Of a DNA stretch of 64,000 bases, positions 19,921-29,170 are shown piece by piece (the first letter of the stretch is position 1; each line of letters begins with the position of its first letter). This stretch comes from Escherichia coli (GTDB lineage Bacteria > Pseudomonadota > Gammaproteobacteria > Enterobacterales > Enterobacteriaceae). The DNA lies in NCBI RefSeq assembly GCF_048403405.1, contig NZ_CP183129.1. One strand, 5' to 3'. The translations under genes and the position numbers were made by a program. Under the pieces are notes generated by a model, which saw only the letters and a list, made by a program, of their open reading frames with translations, was not told the origin of the DNA and searched no databases.

Positions 19921-20628
19921 GAATAACGCCCACATGCTGTTCTTATTATTCCCTGGGGACTACGGGCACAGAGGTTAACTTTCTGTTACCTGGAGACGTC
20001 GGGATTTCCTTCCTCCGGTCTGCTTGCGGGTCAGACAGCGTCCTTTCTATAACTGCGCGTCATGCAAAACACTGCTTCCAGATGCGAAAACGACACGTTA
20101 CAACGCTGGGTGGCTCGGGATTGCAGGGTGTTCCGGAGACCTGGCGGCAGTATAGGCTGTTCACAAAATCATTACAATTAACCTACATATAGTTTGTCGG
20201 GTTTTATCCTGAACAGTGATCCAGGTCACGATAACAACATTTATTTAATTTTTAATCATCTAATTTGACAATCATTCAACAAAGTTGTTACAAACATTAC
20301 CAGGAAAAGCATATAATGCGTAAAAGTTATGAAGTCGGTATTTCACCTAAGATTAACTTATGTAACAGTGTGGAAGTATTGACCAATTCATTCGGGACAG
20401 TTATTAGTGGTAGACAAGTTTAATAATTCGGATTGCTAAGTACTTGATTCGCCATTTATTCGTCATCAATGGATCCTTTACCTGCAAGCGCCCAGAGCTC
20501 TGTACCCAGGTTTTCCCCTCTTTCACAGAGCGGCGAGCCAAATAACAAACGGGTAAAGCCAGGTTGATGTGCGAAGGCAAATTTAAGTTCCGGCAGTCTT
20601 ACGCAATAAGGCGCTAAGGAGACCTTAA
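19921..20628. promoter_or_regulatory. divergent sdhC / gltA promoter-regulatory intergenic region
   Basis: About 700-bp AT-rich non-coding spacer between divergently transcribed sdhC and gltA, as in K-12. Confidence 0.6.
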
Positions 20629-21912
20629 ATGGCTGATACAAAAGCAAAACTCACCCTCAACGGGGACACAGCTGTTGAACTGGATGTGCTGAAAGGCACG
20701 CTGGGTCAAGATGTTATTGATATCCGTACTCTCGGTTCAAAAGGTGTGTTCACCTTTGACCCTGGCTTCACTTCAACCGCATCCTGCGAATCTAAAATTA
20801 CTTTTATTGATGGTGATGAAGGTATTTTGCTGCACCGCGGTTTCCCGATCGATCAGCTGGCGACCGATTCTAACTACCTGGAAGTTTGTTACATCCTGCT
20901 GAATGGTGAAAAACCGACTCAGGAACAGTATGACGAATTTAAAACTACGGTGACCCGTCATACCATGATCCACGAGCAGATTACCCGTCTGTTCCATGCT
21001 TTCCGTCGCGACTCGCATCCAATGGCAGTCATGTGTGGTATTACCGGCGCGCTGGCGGCGTTCTATCACGACTCGCTGGATGTTAACAATCCTCGTCATC
21101 GTGAAATTGCCGCGTTCCGCCTGCTGTCGAAAATGCCGACTATGGCCGCGATGTGTTACAAGTATTCCATTGGTCAGCCATTTGTTTACCCGCGCAACGA
21201 TCTCTCCTATGCCGGTAACTTCCTGAATATGATGTTCTCCACGCCGTGCGAACCGTATGAAGTTAATCCGATTCTGGAACGTGCTATGGACCGTATTTTG
21301 ATCCTGCACGCTGACCATGAACAGAACGCCTCCACCTCCACCGTGCGTACCGCTGGCTCTTCGGGGGCGAACCCGTTTGCCTGTATCGCAGCAGGTATTG
21401 CTTCACTGTGGGGACCTGCGCACGGTGGTGCTAACGAAGCGGCGCTGAAAATGCTGGAAGAAATCAGCTCCGTTAAACACATTCCGGAATTTGTTCGTCG
21501 TGCGAAAGACAAAAATGACTCTTTCCGCCTGATGGGCTTCGGGCACCGCGTGTACAAAAATTACGACCCGCGCGCCACCGTAATGCGTGAAACCTGCCAT
21601 GAAGTGCTGAAAGAGCTGGGTACCAAAGATGACCTGCTGGAAGTGGCTATGGAGCTGGAAAACATCGCGCTGAACGACCCGTACTTTATCGAGAAGAAAC
21701 TCTATCCGAACGTCGATTTCTACTCTGGTATCATCCTGAAAGCGATGGGTATTCCGTCTTCTATGTTCACCGTGATCTTCGCTATGGCACGCACCGTTGG
21801 CTGGATCGCCCACTGGAGCGAAATGCACAGTGACGGTATGAAGATTGCCCGTCCGCGTCAACTGTATACAGGATATGAAAAACGCGACTTTAAAAGCGAC
21901 ATCAAGCGTTAA
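20629..21912 (+). CDS. gltA: citrate synthase
   Basis: 427 aa; [36 protein letters not shown]. Confidence 0.96.
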
Positions 21913-21942
21913 TGGTTGATTGCTAAGCCGTTTACTTTCCGG

Positions 21943-21972
21943 ACCCGCCTTTAATAGAGCGGGTTCTTTTTT
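21943..21972 (+). terminator. putative intrinsic terminator downstream of gltA
   Basis: CCCGC...GCGGG stem followed by TTCTTTTTT. Confidence 0.45.
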
Positions 21973-22301
21973 ATATGGCTGAACATAATAAATTGTAAAA
22001 ATTAAACCAGATGCAAATACCCATTAATAAGGTGAAAAAATGTGACAAGTCACATACTGAGCAGAATGATAAGTTTATTTTTATACTTTCATGCCGGTAG
22101 CATTGTTAACCCAATGAAAATTATGCATATCCATCCCACCCCATCTTTCATCTCATTAAACAATAAATTTATGCACTCAATTATTCCATTCTTTATATAA
22201 CAAGCTTTTTAATATTGTTAAATAAAACCAAATACATTCAACTGTCAGTTAATATATTCTTGCCTCGCAACACTCTATCTCATTATTTAAAGGACTCAGC
22301 T

Positions 22302-22868
22302 ATGTTTAAAGGACAAAAAACATTGGCCGCACTGGCCGTATCTCTGCTGTTCACTGCACCTGTTTATGCGGCTGATGAAGGATCCGGTGAAATTCACTTT
22401 AAAGGTGAAGTTATTGAAGCACCGTGTGAAATACATCAGGATGATATTGATAAAGAAGTTGAACTCGGTCAGGTGACCACCAGCCACATTAATCAGTCGC
22501 ATCACAGCGATGCCGTTGCTGTCGACCTGCGCTTAGTCAACTGCGATCTGGAAAACTCCAACAACGGTTCCGGCGGCAAGATTTCTAAAGTTGCAGTCAC
22601 CTTTGACAGCTCAGCGAAAACCACCGGCGCAGATCCGATTCTCAACAACACCAGCACGGGTGAAGCGACCGGTGTCGGCGTGCGTTTAATGAATAAAGAT
22701 CAAAGCAATATCGTTTTAGGCACCGCTACTCCAGATATCGACCTGGCACCAACCTCCAGCGAACAAACGTTAAATTTCTTTGCGTGGATGGAACAAATTG
22801 ATCAGGCTACGCCCGTAACACCAGGCGCAGTTACGGCGAATGCGACCTACGTACTGGATTATAAATAA
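22302..22868 (+). CDS. ybgD: fimbrial major subunit (chaperone-usher fimbriae)
   Basis: 188 aa from MFKGQKTLAALAVSLLFTAPVYA (signal peptide); first gene of a subunit-usher-chaperone-adhesin operon. Confidence 0.85.
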   Translation: MFKGQKTLAALAVSLLFTAPVYAADEGSGEIHFKGEVIEAPCEIHQDDIDKEVELGQVTTSHINQSHHSDAVAVDLRLVNCDLENSNNGSGGKISKVAVTFDSSAKTTGADPILNNTSTGEATGVGVRLMNKDQSNIVLGTATPDIDLAPTSSEQTLNFFAWMEQIDQATPVTPGAVTANATYVLDYK

Positions 22869-22918
22869 GTATCACTTTGGCGGCGTCATCGCCGCCTTTC
22901 TTCAAATATTTATCAGGT

Positions 22919-25378
22919 ATGGACACCGTGAATATTTATCGACTCTCTTTTATATCCTGTCTGGTCATGGCGATGCCTTGCGCATTGGCGGTCGAATTCA
23001 ATCTGAATGTTCTCGATAAATCAATGCGCGACCGCATTGATATTTCATTATTAAAGGAAAAAGGAGTCATTGCTCCCGGTGAATATTTTGTTAGCGTTGC
23101 GGTGAATAACAACCAAATCAGTAATGGGCAAAAAATCAACTGGCAAAAAAAGGGGGACAAAACCATTCCATGCATCAATGATTCACTGGTCGATAAATTT
23201 GGTTTAAAACCAGATATCCGTCAGTCCTTGCCACAGATAGATCGGTGTATTGATTTCAGTTCCCGACCTGAAATGCTCTTCAATTTCGATCAAGCCAATC
23301 AGCAACTGAATATCACTATTCCACAAGCCTGGCTGGCGTGGCACTCAGATAACTGGACTCCCCCCTCAACATGGAAAGAAGGTGTCGCCGGCGTCCTGAT
23401 GGACTACAACCTGTTTGCTAGCAGCTACCGCCCACAGGATGGTAGCAACAGCACTAACCTGAACGCCTATGGAACAGCCGGAATTAACGCGGGAGCATGG
23501 CGTTTACGCAGTGATTACCAATTGAATCAGACCGATAGCGATGATAACCATGAACAGTCAGGCGAAATATCACGCACCTATCTTTTTCGTCCATTACCGC
23601 AATTAGGTTCAAAATTAACCCTTGGTGAAACGGATTTCAGTTCCAATATTTTCGACGGCTTTTCTTATACCGGCGCGGCACTGGCAAGTGACGATCGGAT
23701 GTTACCGTGGGAGCTACGCGGCTACGCCCCACAAATCAGCGGCATTGCACAAACCAACGCCACCGTCACCGTGAGTCACTCAGGGCGAGTTATTTACCAG
23801 AAAAAAGTCCCACCAGGTCCGTTTATCATTGATGACCTTAATCAGTCCGTCCAGGGTACGTTGGATGTCAAAGTGACGGAAGAAGATGGTCGGGTGAACA
23901 ATTTCCAGGTTTCGGCAGCATCGACTCCCTTCCTGACTCGCCAGGGACAGGTTCGCTATAAATTGGCCGCGGGTCAGCCACGGCCCTCCATGTCACATCA
24001 AACTGAAAATGAAACCTTTTTTAGCAATGAAGTTTCCTGGGGGATGCTGTCAAATACCTCGCTGTACGGCGGCCTGCTGATTTCGGGTGACGACTACCAT
24101 TCTGCCGCAATGGGTATCGGGCAAAATATGCTCTGGCTTGGTGCATTGTCGTTTGATGTCACCTGGGCCAGTAGTCAGTTTGATACTCAGCAGGACGAGC
24201 GGGGCTTAAGTTACCGCTTTAATTACAGCAAACAAGTGGATGCCACTAACAGCACGATTTCGCTCGCCGCTTATCGCTTCTCAGATCGTCATTTTCACAG
24301 CTACGCCAACTATCTGGATCACAAATACAACGACAACGATGCGCAGGACGAAAAACAGACGATCAGCTTATCCGTGGGGCAACCGATTACCCCACTGAAC
24401 TTCAATCTGTACGCCAACCTGCTGCATCAAACCTGGTGGAATGCAGACGCCTCCACGACCGCCAACATCACGGCGGGTTTTAATGTTGATATTGGTAACT
24501 GGAGAGATATCTCGATCTCGACGTCATTCAATACAACCCATTACGAAGATAAAGATCGCGACAATCAGATTTACCTGTCGATTTCGCTCCCCTTCGGTAA
24601 CGGGGGGCGGGTCGGTTATGACATGCAAAACAGTAATCACAGCACCACGCACCGCATGTCGTGGAATGATACGTTAGATGAACGTAATAGCTGGGGCATG
24701 TCTACCGGACTGCAATCCGACCGTCCGGATAATGGAGCCCAGGTGAGCGGTAACTATCAGCACCTGAGTTCAGCGGGTGAGTGGGATATTTCTGGTACCT
24801 ATGCCGCCAATGATTACAGTTCCGTCAGCAGCAGCTGGAGCGGTTCTTTCACGGCAACTCAATATGGTGCAGCGTTCCATCGTCGCAGCTCCACCAATGA
24901 ACCACGTCTGATGGTCAGTACCGATGGCGTGGCAGATATTCCGGTTCAGGGCAATCTCGACTACACCAACCATTTTGGCATTGCGGTGGTGCCGTTGATT
25001 TCCAGTTATCAGCCTTCCACCGTGTCGGTGAACATGAATGATTTACCCGACGGCGTAACAGTGGCAGATAACGTTATCAAAGAAACGTGGATTGAAGGCG
25101 CGATAGGTTACAAATCGCTGGCTTCCCGTTCCGGTAAAGACGTTAACGTCATCATTCGCAACGCCAGCGGTCAGTTCCCTCCCCTCGGTGCGGATATCCG
25201 CCAGGATGATAGCGGCATTAGCGTGGGGATGGTTGGCGAGGAAGGACATGCCTGGTTAAGTGGAGTCGCTGAAAATCAACAATTTACCGTGGTCTGGGGT
25301 GATAGCCAGCGTTGCTCGATCCATCTTCCTGAACATATGGAAGACACCGCAAATCGCCTGATTTTACCTTGTCATTAA
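22919..25378 (+). CDS. ybgQ: fimbrial outer-membrane usher protein
   Basis: About 820 aa; start ambiguous (ATG 22877 or 22919, GTG 22928). Confidence 0.85.
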   Translation: MDTVNIYRLSFISCLVMAMPCALAVEFNLNVLDKSMRDRIDISLLKEKGVIAPGEYFVSVAVNNNQISNGQKINWQKKGDKTIPCINDSLVDKFGLKPDIRQSLPQIDRCIDFSSRPEMLFNFDQANQQLNITIPQAWLAWHSDNWTPPSTWKEGVAGVLMDYNLFASSYRPQDGSNSTNLNAYGTAGINAGAWRLRSDYQLNQTDSDDNHEQSGEISRTYLFRPLPQLGSKLTLGETDFSSNIFDGFSYTGAALASDDRMLPWELRGYAPQISGIAQTNATVTVSHSGRVIYQKKVPPGPFIIDDLNQSVQGTLDVKVTEEDGRVNNFQVSAASTPFLTRQGQVRYKLAAGQPRPSMSHQTENETFFSNEVSWGMLSNTSLYGGLLISGDDYHSAAMGIGQNMLWLGALSFDVTWASSQFDTQQDERGLSYRFNYSKQVDATNSTISLAAYRFSDRHFHSYANYLDHKYNDNDAQDEKQTISLSVGQPITPLNFNLYANLLHQTWWNADASTTANITAGFNVDIGNWRDISISTSFNTTHYEDKDRDNQIYLSISLPFGNGGRVGYDMQNSNHSTTHRMSWNDTLDERNSWGMSTGLQSDRPDNGAQVSGNYQHLSSAGEWDISGTYAANDYSSVSSSWSGSFTATQYGAAFHRRSSTNEPRLMVSTDGVADIPVQGNLDYTNHFGIAVVPLISSYQPSTVSVNMNDLPDGVTVADNVIKETWIEGAIGYKSLASRSGKDVNVIIRNASGQFPPLGADIRQDDSGISVGMVGEEGHAWLSGVAENQQFTVVWGDSQRCSIHLPEHMEDTANRLILPCH

Positions 25379-25393
25379 TTAAGGAAATGAAAA

Positions 25394-26125
25394 ATGACAT
25401 TTATGAAAGGACTTCCCCTTTTGTTGTTGATTGCCAGTCTGTGCAGCTACGCTGCGCTACAACCCGATCGCACTCGCATTGTGTTTAACGCTAATGATAA
25501 AGCCACCAGCCTACGAGTGGATAATCGTAGCGATAAACTCCCCTACCTCGCTTATTCCTGGCTCGAAAATGAAAAAGGGGAGAAAAGCGACGATCTTCTG
25601 GTCGCCCTGCCACCGATACAACGTCTGGAACCGAAAGCAACAACGCAGGTGCGGATAGTCAAGCAAGCCTCGACCGCGAAATTACCGGGCGATCGCGAAA
25701 CGCTATTTTTCTACAATATGCGTGAAATTCCTCCCTCCCCAGAAAAAAACAGCGGCCATGCCGTTCTGCAGGTCGCCATCCAGAGTCGTATCAAGGTGTT
25801 CTGGAGACCGTCCGCGTTACGCAAGAAAGCAGGAGAAAAAGTCGAGCTACAGTTACAAGTCAGCCAGCAGGGCAATCAACTTAACTTAAAAAACCCGACC
25901 GGCTATTACCTGACAATCGCCTACTTGGGACGAAATGAGCAAGCTGTTCTCCCGGGCTTCAAAACCGTGATGGTTGCGCCTTTTAGTACAGTAATTACAA
26001 ACACCGGAAGTTATAGCGGCAGTCAGTTTTATCTCGGTTATATGGATGATTACGGCGCGTTACGCATGACGACGCTCAATTGCAACGGACATTGCCGTTT
26101 ACAAGCAGTGGAGGCGAAGAAATGA
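25394..26125 (+). CDS. ybgP: fimbrial periplasmic chaperone
   Basis: 243 aa with signal peptide; PapD-like size. Confidence 0.85.
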
Positions 26126-27183
26126 GTACTGGCAAAGGATTGTTGCTCGTCATCTGTCTGTTATTTCTGCCATTGAAGTCTGCGCTAGCGCTGAACTGCT
26201 ATTTTGGTACTTCCGGCGGAACGGTAGAAAAATCGGAAGCGATTCAACCCTTTGCTGTGCCAGGTAATGCCAAACCCGGCGATAAGATCTGGGAATCTGA
26301 CGATATTAAAATTCCCGTCTATTGTGACAACAATACCAACGGCAACTTTGAAAGCGAACATGTCTACGCATGGGTAAACCCCTACCCGGGGGTACAGGAT
26401 CGTTATTATCAACTCGGCGTGACATACAATGGTGTCGATTACGATGCCAGTCTGGGGAAAAGCCGCATCGACACCAACCAGTGTATCGACAGTAAGAACA
26501 TTAACATTTATACCCCTGAGCAGATTATCGCGATGGGCTGGCAGAACAAAATATGCTCGGGTGACCCCGCTAATATTCACATGTCGCGAACCTTTCTTGC
26601 TCGTATGCGGTTATACGTTAAGATTCGCGAAATACCGCCGCATGATTATCAAAGTACGCTTAGCGACTACATCGTCGTGCAATTTGATGGTGCCGGTAGC
26701 GTTAACGAAGACCCTACCGCCCAAAACCTGAAATACCATATTACTGGTCTGGAAAACATTCGTGTACTGGATTGCAGCGTCAATTTTTCTATTTCACCAG
26801 AAACACAGGTGATTGATTTTGGTAAATTTAACCTGCTGGATATTCGCCGCCACACAATGTCGAAAACATTCAGTATTAAGACGACAAAATCACAAAATGA
26901 CCAGTGCACCGACGGATTTAAGGTCAGCTCTTCGTTTTATACCGAAGAAACATTGATTGAAGAGGATAAAGCACTGCTGATTGGTAATGGACTGAAGCTA
27001 CGTTTGCTGGATGAAAATTCTTCACCCTATACTTTCAACAAATACAGCGAATATGCTGATTTCACCAGCGATATGCTGATCTACGAAAAAACCTATACGG
27101 CTGAACTTTCGTCCATTCCCGGCACCCCCATCGAAGCGGGTCCCTTCGATACAGTGGTGCTTTTTAAGATTAACTATAACTAA
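26122..27183 (+). CDS. ybgO: fimbrial adhesin-like / minor subunit protein
   Basis: 353 aa from [23 protein letters not shown]; start overlaps the ybgP stop. Confidence 0.8.
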
Positions 27184-27335
27184 TTTATCATGATGCCCTT
27201 TGCAGTCAGTAAAGGGCATCTCTTTCAGAAAATTGCTGATTTTCCCCTTTTCCTTGATTGCTGTTATTTTTTCCTGGCCCGGCTTTCTTTATGCTGTATC
27301 GATACACCAAAGAGAAAATAATGAGGGAGCGAAGG

Positions 27336-28382
27336 ATGCCAGTTTTGCAGTGGGGAATGTTATGTGTGCTCTCACTTCTCCTTTCTATTGGTTTCCTCGC
27401 GGTTCATCTCCCGGCGGCGCTATTACTTGGGCCGATGATCGCCGGGATCATCTTTAGTATGCGCGGAATTACTCTGCAACTTCCCCGCTCCGCTTTTCTC
27501 GCCGCCCAGGCCATTCTTGGCTGCATGATTGCGCAAAACCTCACTGGTTCGATTCTCACCACGCTGGCCGTCAACTGGCCGATCGTGCTTACAATTTTAC
27601 TGGTGACGCTGCTTTCCAGCGCCATTGTTGGGTGGCTACTGGTGCGCTATAGCTCATTACCAGGAAATACTGGTGCCTGGGGTTCTTCTCCTGGCGGCGC
27701 GGCGGCAATGGTCGCTATGGCGCAAGATTACGGCGCAGATATTCGCCTGGTGGCGTTTATGCAATATCTGCGAGTGCTGTTCGTCGCAGGGGCCGCTGTT
27801 CTGGTCACCCGCATGATGCTGGGCGATAACGCTGAAGCGGTTAACCAGCAGATCGTCTGGTTTCCGCCAGTGAGCATTAATCTCCTGCTTACGATTTTGC
27901 TCGCGGTCGTTGCCGGTACAGTGGGATGCCTGCTGCGTCTTCCTTCCGGCACGATGCTCATCCCGATGCTGGCGGGCGCAGTGCTCCAGTCTGGTCAGCT
28001 CATCACCATCGAACTACCGGAATGGCTGCTGGCGATGGCGTATATGGCAATTGGTTGGCGGATTGGTCTTGGTTTCGATAAACAAATATTACTGCGGGCA
28101 TTGCGCCCACTGCCACAAATCCTGCTGTCGATTTTTGCTCTGCTGGCTATTTGTGCGGGTATGGCGTGGGGACTGACCCGATTTATGCACATTGATTTTA
28201 TGACTGCCTACCTCGCCACCAGCCCCGGCGGGCTTGATACCGTGGCGGTCATCGCCGCAGGGAGCAATGCCGATATGGCGCTCATTATGGCGATGCAAAC
28301 CCTGCGCCTGTTCAGTATTTTGCTGACGGGACCTGCCATTGCGCGGTTTATTTCAACCTATGCGCCGAAACGTACGGCCTAG
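27336..28382 (+). CDS. abrB: AbrB-family membrane protein (putative regulator/transporter)
   Basis: 348 aa from [15 protein letters not shown]; polytopic membrane protein. Confidence 0.85.
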
Positions 28383-29170
28383 TGCTGACAGCCAGGGCAC
28401 CAGTAAAACGGGCGAGATGACAGCGTGGTTTTCTCAATGATGCTGCCACAGCGTTCACACGGTTCGCCATCACGATGAAAAACCTTAAAGCGAAACAACG
28501 CCCCATGATGTTTATTCTCATCCACCTGCCCCCGCGTAGCGTAAGAAAGTCGAGGAATATCCAGTAACGCGTCTGCGAGTGCATCCAGTTGCGCCGCACT
28601 GAGATCTTTCGCTTTACGATTGCCGGTTAACCCCACCTGCCAGAGGATCTCCACCCGCAAATAATTGCCAAGTCCTGCCAGAAACGCCTGATCGAGCAGT
28701 AATCCAGCAAACTGACGGTTACGAAAGCGCGGCGACAATAATCGTTCCTTTACCACCTCTGGCGTCAGATTCGGATCCAGCACATCTGGACCAACGCGTT
28801 GTAAAAACGGATGCGTGGTCAGTTGTTCCGGGGTCAACATCTCAATATCCGAGGCGCTATAAAGCAGAATGGTTTTGTCAGCCGTTTGCAGTTTTACCCG
28901 CAATACTCGCGTGGTCTGCGGCTCTTCGCCGGTTTCAACCACGCGCCAGACGCCGTAAAGCTGATTATGGCTGTAGAGCGTTAAGTCGTTGGAAAAATGA
29001 GTTAACAACGCCTTACCACGCGTTTCCACATGGGTAACGTGTTGACCGATAAGTCGTGATTGATAAGATTTTAACTGCGGGAAGGCAAACCAGACATCAG
29101 TTAGTGGTTTGCCTTTGATCGCCGCCTCCAGGTTATCCGCTGCACGGCGGATCTCCGGGCCTTCAGGCAT
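28379..29170 (-). CDS. nei: endonuclease VIII (DNA glycosylase/AP lyase)
   Basis: 263 aa; [10 protein letters not shown]-terminus typical of Fpg/Nei; C-terminal Cys4 zinc finger. Confidence 0.95.

Follow-up and report, generated by a model that had tools for sequence, protein, structure and literature searches.

Introduction

Chaperone capping, an adhesin-primed usher and donor-strand exchange are established features of the biology of chaperone-usher (CU) fimbriae. Among the described systems that most resemble the Ybg operon of Escherichia coli, P pili (PapC, PapD, PapA, PapG) represent the closest solved assembly machinery, having in common with Ybg a two-domain tip adhesin and a rod subunit joined by donor-strand exchange. 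The Yeh/Yhl pili (PMC12778044) have the same minimal four-gene design, with one major subunit, a chaperone, an usher and a two-domain tip adhesin. Here we describe the operon ybgD-ybgQ-ybgP-ybgO, which lies next to gltA at positions 22302-27183 of a 64,000-nucleotide stretch of E. coli DNA (contig NZ_CP183129.1, assembly GCF_048403405.1), this whole stretch being referred to below as the window.

Ybg has been described as core-associated but not intact in many strains (Wurpel 2013, PMC3559732), and the same paper cites Korea 2010 on H-NS-repressed, cryptic CU fimbriae. In K-12, the ybgD/gltA intergenic region is one of 78 'promoter islands' and is bound by H-NS in all chromatin immunoprecipitation datasets (Panyukov and Ozoline 2013, PMC3661553 Table 1). 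Adherence to bladder cells is reported to rise when Ybg is expressed (Korea 2010, cited in PMC6033998), ybg transcripts have been reported to be higher in non-O157 Shiga toxin-producing E. coli (STEC) associated with haemolytic uraemic syndrome, ybgD is raised on overexpression of BolA (PMC4337573), and a 2025 STEC study flagged ybgP for high variant density. Neither the review 'Beyond FimH' nor the paper on the Yeh adhesin mentions Ybg.

Results

Identity and intactness of the operon

Four co-oriented open reading frames (ORFs) lie between gltA and abrB on the forward strand of the window, and we consider them, with high confidence, to form an intact chromosomal Ybg CU fimbrial operon of E. 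coli. A sequence-only reading of this DNA had already named the locus ybgD-Q-P-O and placed it beside gltA, an identification on which the ORFs, Pfam matches, synteny with K-12 and gene calls of the Prokaryotic Genome Annotation Pipeline (PGAP) agree. All genome counts given here refer to 5426 complete E. coli genomes. By megablast, the 5.6-kb stretch is 100% identical in six of these, and the PGAP annotation of the 100%-identical NZ_CP095533 contains exactly these four coding sequences with no pseudogenes, flanked by gltA and by abrB/nei. Gene order, including the flanks, is that of K-12 MG1655 b0715-b0720 in the opposite orientation, and the flanking genes, gltA upstream (20629-21912, forward strand) and abrB downstream (27336-28382, forward strand), belong to flanks that are colinear with K-12 and 95-100% identical to it.

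K-12 ybgDQPO (b0719-b0716) occupies the same locus and has the same gene order, gene lengths, ybgP/ybgO overlap and a leader of exactly 389 bp, but represents another allele combination, with ybgD, ybgP and the leader differing most. Wurpel 2013 assigned the Ybg type by where the locus lies and by the phylogeny of its usher; the operon described here has that position, from gltA to abrB/nei, and the order ybgD-Q-P-O. It is the known 'core-associated' Ybg operon and not a novel one, and is ordinary apart from old variants of the leader, pilin and chaperone that diverge from those of K-12. No frameshift or internal stop is present in the four proteins, which are colinear with their K-12, O157:H7, EC42405, AR437 and 2EC1 versions, and careful alignment of the usher and adhesin bears out the earlier statement that all frames are intact. 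The GC content is 48.0% in the operon, 31.9% in the leader and 51.9% in the whole window.

By sequence, the operon encodes the usher, PapD-like chaperone, pilin and two-domain tip adhesin of a classical CU system. NCBIfam yielded no equivalog-level match for the operon proteins, and its nearest models are the Std, Stf and Ste ushers and chaperones of Salmonella. An Rfam scan of 20000-29000 at E ≤1 returned zero RNA families.

The four proteins

The sequence-only reading had described a subunit with a signal peptide, an usher of about 820 amino acids (aa), a chaperone, and an adhesin-like protein of 353 aa whose start overlaps the chaperone stop, and domain and motif searches confirmed every part of this description. 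The first gene, ybgD (22302-22868, forward strand), encodes a major pilin of 188 aa from an internal ATG of a longer ORF that opens with TTG at 22215, and a ribosome-binding site, AAGGA, stands 9 nt ahead of this ATG. YbgD matches Pfam Fimbrial (E 4e-30), with FimA and PapA as its best solved relatives, and contains a signal peptide ending in APVYA|ADEG, a FimA-like N-terminal donor strand (GEIHFKGEVIEAPC), the cysteines Cys42 and Cys81, and a C-terminal YVLDYK with penultimate Tyr. The donor strand, Cys pair and C-terminal strand are invariant in six alleles, except that the terminal K is replaced by Q in O157. Most substitutions fall in the central part of mature YbgD, sparing the signal peptide, N-terminal extension and C-terminal strand.

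The usher gene ybgQ (22919-25378, forward strand) encodes 819 aa from an ATG within an ORF that opens at 22877. The signal peptide of YbgQ ends in ALA|VEFN and is followed by an N-terminal domain, a beta-barrel with plug and a C-terminal domain, and Pfam identifies PapC_N (E 2e-34), Usher (E 3e-187) and PapC_C (E 2e-13). YbgQ scores 527 bits against PapC over residues 25-818, compared to 277 bits against FimD. Its best NCBIfam matches are StdB, PRK15284 and PRK15273 (Std, Stf and Ste ushers), and the chaperone is nearest to PapD, Ste, Stf and Std, relationships that are expressed as similarity scores and not as a tree. The usher scores are consistent with Ybg being a pi-clade CU system in the usher-based scheme of Nuccio and Baumler, with an usher nearer to PapC, Std, Stf and Ste than to the FimD-type gamma ushers. 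K-12 YbgQ differs in length by four residues, which is mostly a matter of annotation, as the K-12 gene is annotated from a GTG that lies three codons downstream of our ATG; allowing for this, the two proteins are orthologous over their full length (95.9% identity), and RefSeq gives the name ybgQ to the identical gene.

The chaperone gene ybgP (25394-26125, forward strand) encodes a periplasmic PapD-like protein of 243 aa with PapD_N and PapD_C domains (E 4e-34), scoring 169 bits against PapD and 98 bits against FimC. Alignment to PapD places DRTR at the Arg8 equivalent and SRIKVFWRP at the Lys112 equivalent and G1 strand, and YbgP also contains the C-terminal Cys pair. The ybgP stop overlaps the ybgO start through ATGA in AAATGAGT.

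The last gene, ybgO (26122-27183, forward strand), encodes a two-domain tip adhesin of 353 aa with a signal peptide (residues 1-23), a receptor-binding domain (24-217) and a pilin domain (218-353) that has no N-terminal donor strand. Pfam detects only a weak C-terminal Fimbrial match to residues 218-353 (24 bits, just below the cut-off of 25.6). Residues 24-217 (window positions 26191-26772) align end to end with the solved structure 9RWW, and also with 9RX0, at E values of about 1e-129 to 1e-130. The AlphaFold model of full-length YbgO (mean predicted local distance difference test score, pLDDT, 88.6) contains two beta-rich domains. Foldseek neighbours of the whole protein are the two-domain tip adhesins LpfD, CupB6, FimH, PapG, CsuE and CfaE, with TM-scores of 0.25-0.30. 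The orientation of the two domains to each other keeps these scores low, and the receptor-binding domain was therefore given a model and a search of its own; the fold neighbours of this model are receptor-binding domains of CU adhesins. As the solved-domain match, two-domain model and Foldseek neighbours concur, the earlier term 'adhesin-like' is correct: YbgO is, as modelled, a tip adhesin whose receptor-binding domain is a jelly roll. The crystallised 9RX0/9RWW sequence is the common AR437/2EC1 allele and differs from the YbgO domain of the window by seven substitutions (T30S, T34S, P52L, S110N, L111Q, N128D and I171M). A literature search for publications on 9RX0, 9RWW, 9RWU and 9RWE found nothing relevant and no ligand. 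This apparently unpublished set of structures (9RX0, 9RWW, 9RWU/9RWV and 9RWE), which covers the YbgO domain and its relatives, indicates active work from which a ligand may come soon.

Allelic divergence from K-12

Protein identity to K-12 falls from 100% in GltA and 99.1% in AbrB to 97.5% in YbgO, 95.9% in YbgQ, 86.8% in YbgP and 79.3% in YbgD. The sequence-only reading had turned to YbgO, in comparison with K-12, for allelic variation, which was the wrong place to look: of the four proteins, the adhesin has changed least, with 9 of its 353 residues differing, all conservatively and three of them in the receptor-binding domain. Variation relative to K-12 sits instead in the regulatory region, mature YbgD and most of YbgP. 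Along the locus, nucleotide identity to K-12 is 98-100% in gltA, 53-79% in the leader, 95% over the ribosome-binding site and signal peptide of ybgD, 66-77% in mature ybgD, 85-100% in ybgQ, 77-84% in most of ybgP and 82-96% in ybgO. The deep divergence is carried by the major subunit, which would be surface-exposed, together with its chaperone and the regulatory region, while the adhesin is conserved.

We also compared synonymous divergence (dS) and the ratio of nonsynonymous to synonymous divergence (dN/dS) with K-12. The ybgD gene has a dS of 1.56, which is saturated, and a dN/dS of 0.10, while ybgO has a dS of 0.50 and a dN/dS of 0.03, and gltA a dS of 0.08. Across the three genes computed (ybgD, ybgQ and ybgO), dN/dS is 0.03-0.12 at dS values from 0.5 to more than 1.5, and in ybgP protein identity exceeds nucleotide identity. 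With dN/dS this low, the operon is under purifying selection and is maintained, not decaying; as its frames are also intact, it is best seen as an adhesin system with conditional expression and not as a relic.

Among five reference alleles, the one that matches best changes every few hundred bp, indicating that old allele families have been combined here into a recombination mosaic. The O157 operon stands at about 77% nucleotide identity throughout, and O157 YbgO is 87% identical to other E. coli alleles, making it as distant as the YbgO of E. marmotae or Escherichia sp. E2593 (84-86%).

Distribution and loss among complete genomes

Of the 5426 genomes, 4174 contain a full-length ybgD, and its identity to the window allele is nearly bimodal, reaching at least 95% in 2808 genomes and 60-80% in 1335, with 42 genomes in between. 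The K-12 type of ybgD is a minority type, and the 60-80% band holds both the K-12 and the O157 types. A leader core of the window type occurs in only 1332 genomes compared to the 2808 with matching ybgD, indicating that leader and pilin alleles reassort; AR437, for example, has a ybgD of the window type (96.5%) beside a leader that is only 64% identical. The ybgO allele of the window is rare by nucleotide sequence, with identity of at least 95% in 433 genomes and 90-95% in 3166.

Other E. coli have lost the operon through two different deletions. In a recurrent one (L004:7001-7672), window position ~22040 is joined to ~26790, so that the gltA terminator and 129 bp of leader of the window type survive, fused to the last 392 nt of ybgO; the annotation calls this ybgO remnant a partial 'type 1 fimbrial protein'. 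In a second deletion (L005:7001-7270), ~21985-27137 is gone, from the gltA terminator to the last ~45 nt of ybgO. Roughly 600 genomes retain the ybgO remnant, and about 660 lack any match to ybgO. IS1 insertions were found in NZ_CP074012 and NZ_CM167690, one in the ybg leader/ybgD region and the other in ybgO. Absence of the operon from about 23% of genomes matches the statement of Wurpel 2013 on Ybg loci that are not intact.

The leader and the two hairpins

The ybg intergenic, regulatory region (21913-22301, forward strand; the leader) is 389 bp long, matching the roughly 390 bp of AT-rich DNA noticed earlier ahead of the operon. It is bounded upstream by an intrinsic terminator of gltA (21941-21973, forward strand), read from the sequence and folded, in which an 8-bp stem (GGACCCGC/GCGGGTTC) is followed by a T6 run and is kept in all six aligned alleles. 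The leader of the window is 96% identical to that of 2EC1, 67% to K-12, 64% to AR437 and 54% to O157, and the homologous operons inspected in other species and genera likewise retain AT-rich leaders (27-31% GC). The earlier statement that the operon is cryptic in K-12 accords with the literature (PMC3559732, citing Korea 2010; and PMC3661553 Table 1, in which the ybgD/gltA region is H-NS-bound). The leader of the window is presumed to be an H-NS target and is most likely silenced under laboratory conditions; as it and the K-12 leader share only 67% identity, we infer this silencing from AT-richness.

Two types of switch were considered and rejected. For a fimS-type invertible switch, the leader offers only imperfect AT-rich inverted repeats (75-81% complementary) and no recombinase gene lies nearby, and for a pap-type Dam/Lrp switch, it contains zero GATC sites.

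Between the pilin and usher genes, a terminator scan and folding identified an intercistronic hairpin (22879-22906, forward strand; GGCGGCG-TCAT-CGCCGCC, followed by TTTCTTCAAA) that lies 10 nt past the ybgD stop and has a folding energy of -16.1 kcal/mol (z -4.1). Its GGCGGC/GCCGCC stem is invariant in eight of eight gltA-linked alleles, whereas its loop and flanks vary; the seventh pair, G-C here, is T-A in O157. We consider this hairpin a probable partial terminator (intra-operon attenuator) or 3' stabiliser of the mRNA between the pilin and usher genes. Partial termination or 3' stabilisation at this site would raise the ratio of pilin to assembly machinery. A comparable effect of hairpins on pilin ratio has been described for other fimbrial operons. 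A second hairpin, past the ybgO stop (27192-27220, forward strand; GATGCCCTTTGC-AGTCA-GTAAAGGGCATC), folds at -22.2 kcal/mol (z -4.8), is conserved in E. coli alleles and is the probable terminator of the operon, with a weak T tract.

Related operons and flanking genes

Escherichia sp. E2593 shares the arrangement sdhC-gltA-ybgDQPO, as does a more distant enterobacterium with 73% identity in YbgO. The presence of the gltA-linked operon in another Escherichia and in a distant relative indicates that it is ancestral at this site and not a recent island. Ybg-like operons with the same four-gene order lie between zupT/ygiD and ribB in Enterobacter, Salmonella enterica and Kluyvera (L009:3167-8062, L011:3179-8074 and L013:3178-8074). 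These operons share with ybg an AT-rich leader (29-31% GC) and a hairpin at the same position after the pilin gene, and in the two computed cases their YbgO homologue is 58-61% identical, but they differ in occupying another chromosomal locus and in a hairpin of unrelated sequence. In E. coli K-12, the zupT-ribB locus presumably holds ygiL-yqiGHI. This two-locus distribution hints at an exchange or duplication of fimbrial operons between the gltA and zupT-ribB loci.

Several further observations concern the flanks. The abrB frame is open from a TTG at 27258 (374 aa), with PGAP and K-12 using the start at 27336 (348 aa), and the 150-bp spacer between ybgO and abrB is strongly conserved across non-O157 E. 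coli alleles. Upstream of gltA, a 35-codon ORF (20316-20423, coordinates mapped from L002) is that of YbgU, a small protein (Pfam YbgU in L015; WP_001305582 in an identical genome). The nei gene, for endonuclease VIII, is annotated as frameshifted in O157:H7 TW14359 (L003:12084-12628). In Escherichia sp. E2593 (L015:7788-13917), genes for a TRAP transporter (DctPQM) and a sugar-acid dehydratase and dehydrogenase replace abrB-nei after ybgO, so the downstream flank is variable across the genus. One of 6102 places matching the gltA-ybg-abrB stretch sits on a record typed as a plasmid.

Discussion

From the gene content, motifs and homologies described above, we infer how a Ybg fibre would be made. 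Sec signal peptides would export all four products, after which YbgP, in the periplasm, would use donor-strand complementation to bind both YbgD and YbgO. The YbgQ usher would take up the YbgP-YbgO complex first, which would place the adhesin at the fibre tip, where it may engage a receptor, and would then polymerise YbgD by donor-strand exchange, with the N-terminal extension of each YbgD inserted into the groove of the previous subunit. The product would be a minimal fibre of adhesin and homopolymeric rod, free of adaptor or terminator subunits. Transcription would start within the 389-bp AT-rich leader, most likely silenced by H-NS under laboratory conditions and opened under others, and the hairpin after ybgD would end or stabilise most transcripts, giving far more pilin than usher, chaperone or adhesin.

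Several observations weigh against parts of this picture. The operon is missing from about 23% of the complete genomes (~1250), indicating that it is dispensable in some lineages. A scan for sigma-70 consensus sites found five compared to 9.9 expected from shuffles, so that no promoter could be assigned, and the H-NS binding was measured on the K-12 leader, which the window leader matches at only 67%. The hairpin after ybgD has a poor U-tract, and its covariation within the gltA-linked group is minimal because the core stem is invariant and only the seventh pair changes.

A recently acquired horizontal island, in which the AT-rich leader and low GC reflect foreign origin, is an improbable account of this locus. 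The GC contents of the operon and leader are below that of the window (48.0% and 31.9% versus 51.9%), the K-12 ybgD/gltA promoter island has been associated with predicted foreign genes (PMC3661553), and homologous operons with about 60% YbgO identity occupy the zupT-ribB locus in Enterobacter, Salmonella and Kluyvera. However, the operon holds the same gltA-linked position in about 77% of the 5426 genomes, in E2593 and in the relative with 73% identity, no mobility genes, tRNA or flanking repeats accompany it, its flanks are colinear with K-12, and the divergence is better explained by old alleles exchanged through homologous recombination, a reading that the mosaic pattern supports.

That Ybg is instead a decaying, non-functional relic, cryptic and on its way to becoming a pseudogene cluster, is less probable still. 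The operon is described as poorly expressed or cryptic in K-12 and as 'not intact in many strains' (PMC3559732), two independent deletions and occasional IS1 insertions have removed or interrupted it, and ybgO is a pseudogene in S. flexneri (PMC6854044). Yet none of the four frames is broken, either here or in five further alleles that have diverged strongly, the motifs critical for assembly are invariant, and the locus has been kept in other Escherichia species and beyond, while relaxed constraint could not yield dN/dS values of 0.03-0.12 in ybgD, ybgQ and ybgO up to saturated dS. Least credible of all is the idea that the usher and chaperone serve mainly as spare machinery for subunits of other operons, a fimbrial promiscuity raised for Shigella, where fimD is a pseudogene (PMC6854044), since conservation is just as good in Ybg's own pilin and adhesin, which show translational coupling through the ATGA overlap, and chaperone divergence tracks ybgD across the compared alleles, suggesting co-adaptation with its own subunit.

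The deep mosaic allele structure is compatible with antigenic or regulatory diversification. More tentatively, long-term balancing or diversifying selection may have kept allele families of the leader, pilin and chaperone since before E. coli speciation, given the saturated synonymous divergence and an O157-type YbgO as distant as those of other Escherichia species, with leader and pilin cassettes apparently reassorting independently at the conserved junction of the ribosome-binding site and signal peptide; we regard this as a possibility worth stating and not as the expected explanation. If it is true, lineages would differ in antigenic fibre type and in the timing of expression, with adhesin specificity fixed.

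The analysis is of little importance past correct annotation of this strain, which has a complete Ybg operon, a core-associated adhesin locus that many extraintestinal lineages have deleted. For typing, K-12 is an unsuitable reference for ybgD, ybgP and the leader, where it represents a minority, deeply divergent allele. The strength of purifying selection indicates that this 'cryptic' operon is used in nature, and the conserved hairpin after the pilin gene, together with very different leader alleles, provides ready material for work on the regulation of H-NS-silenced fimbrial operons.

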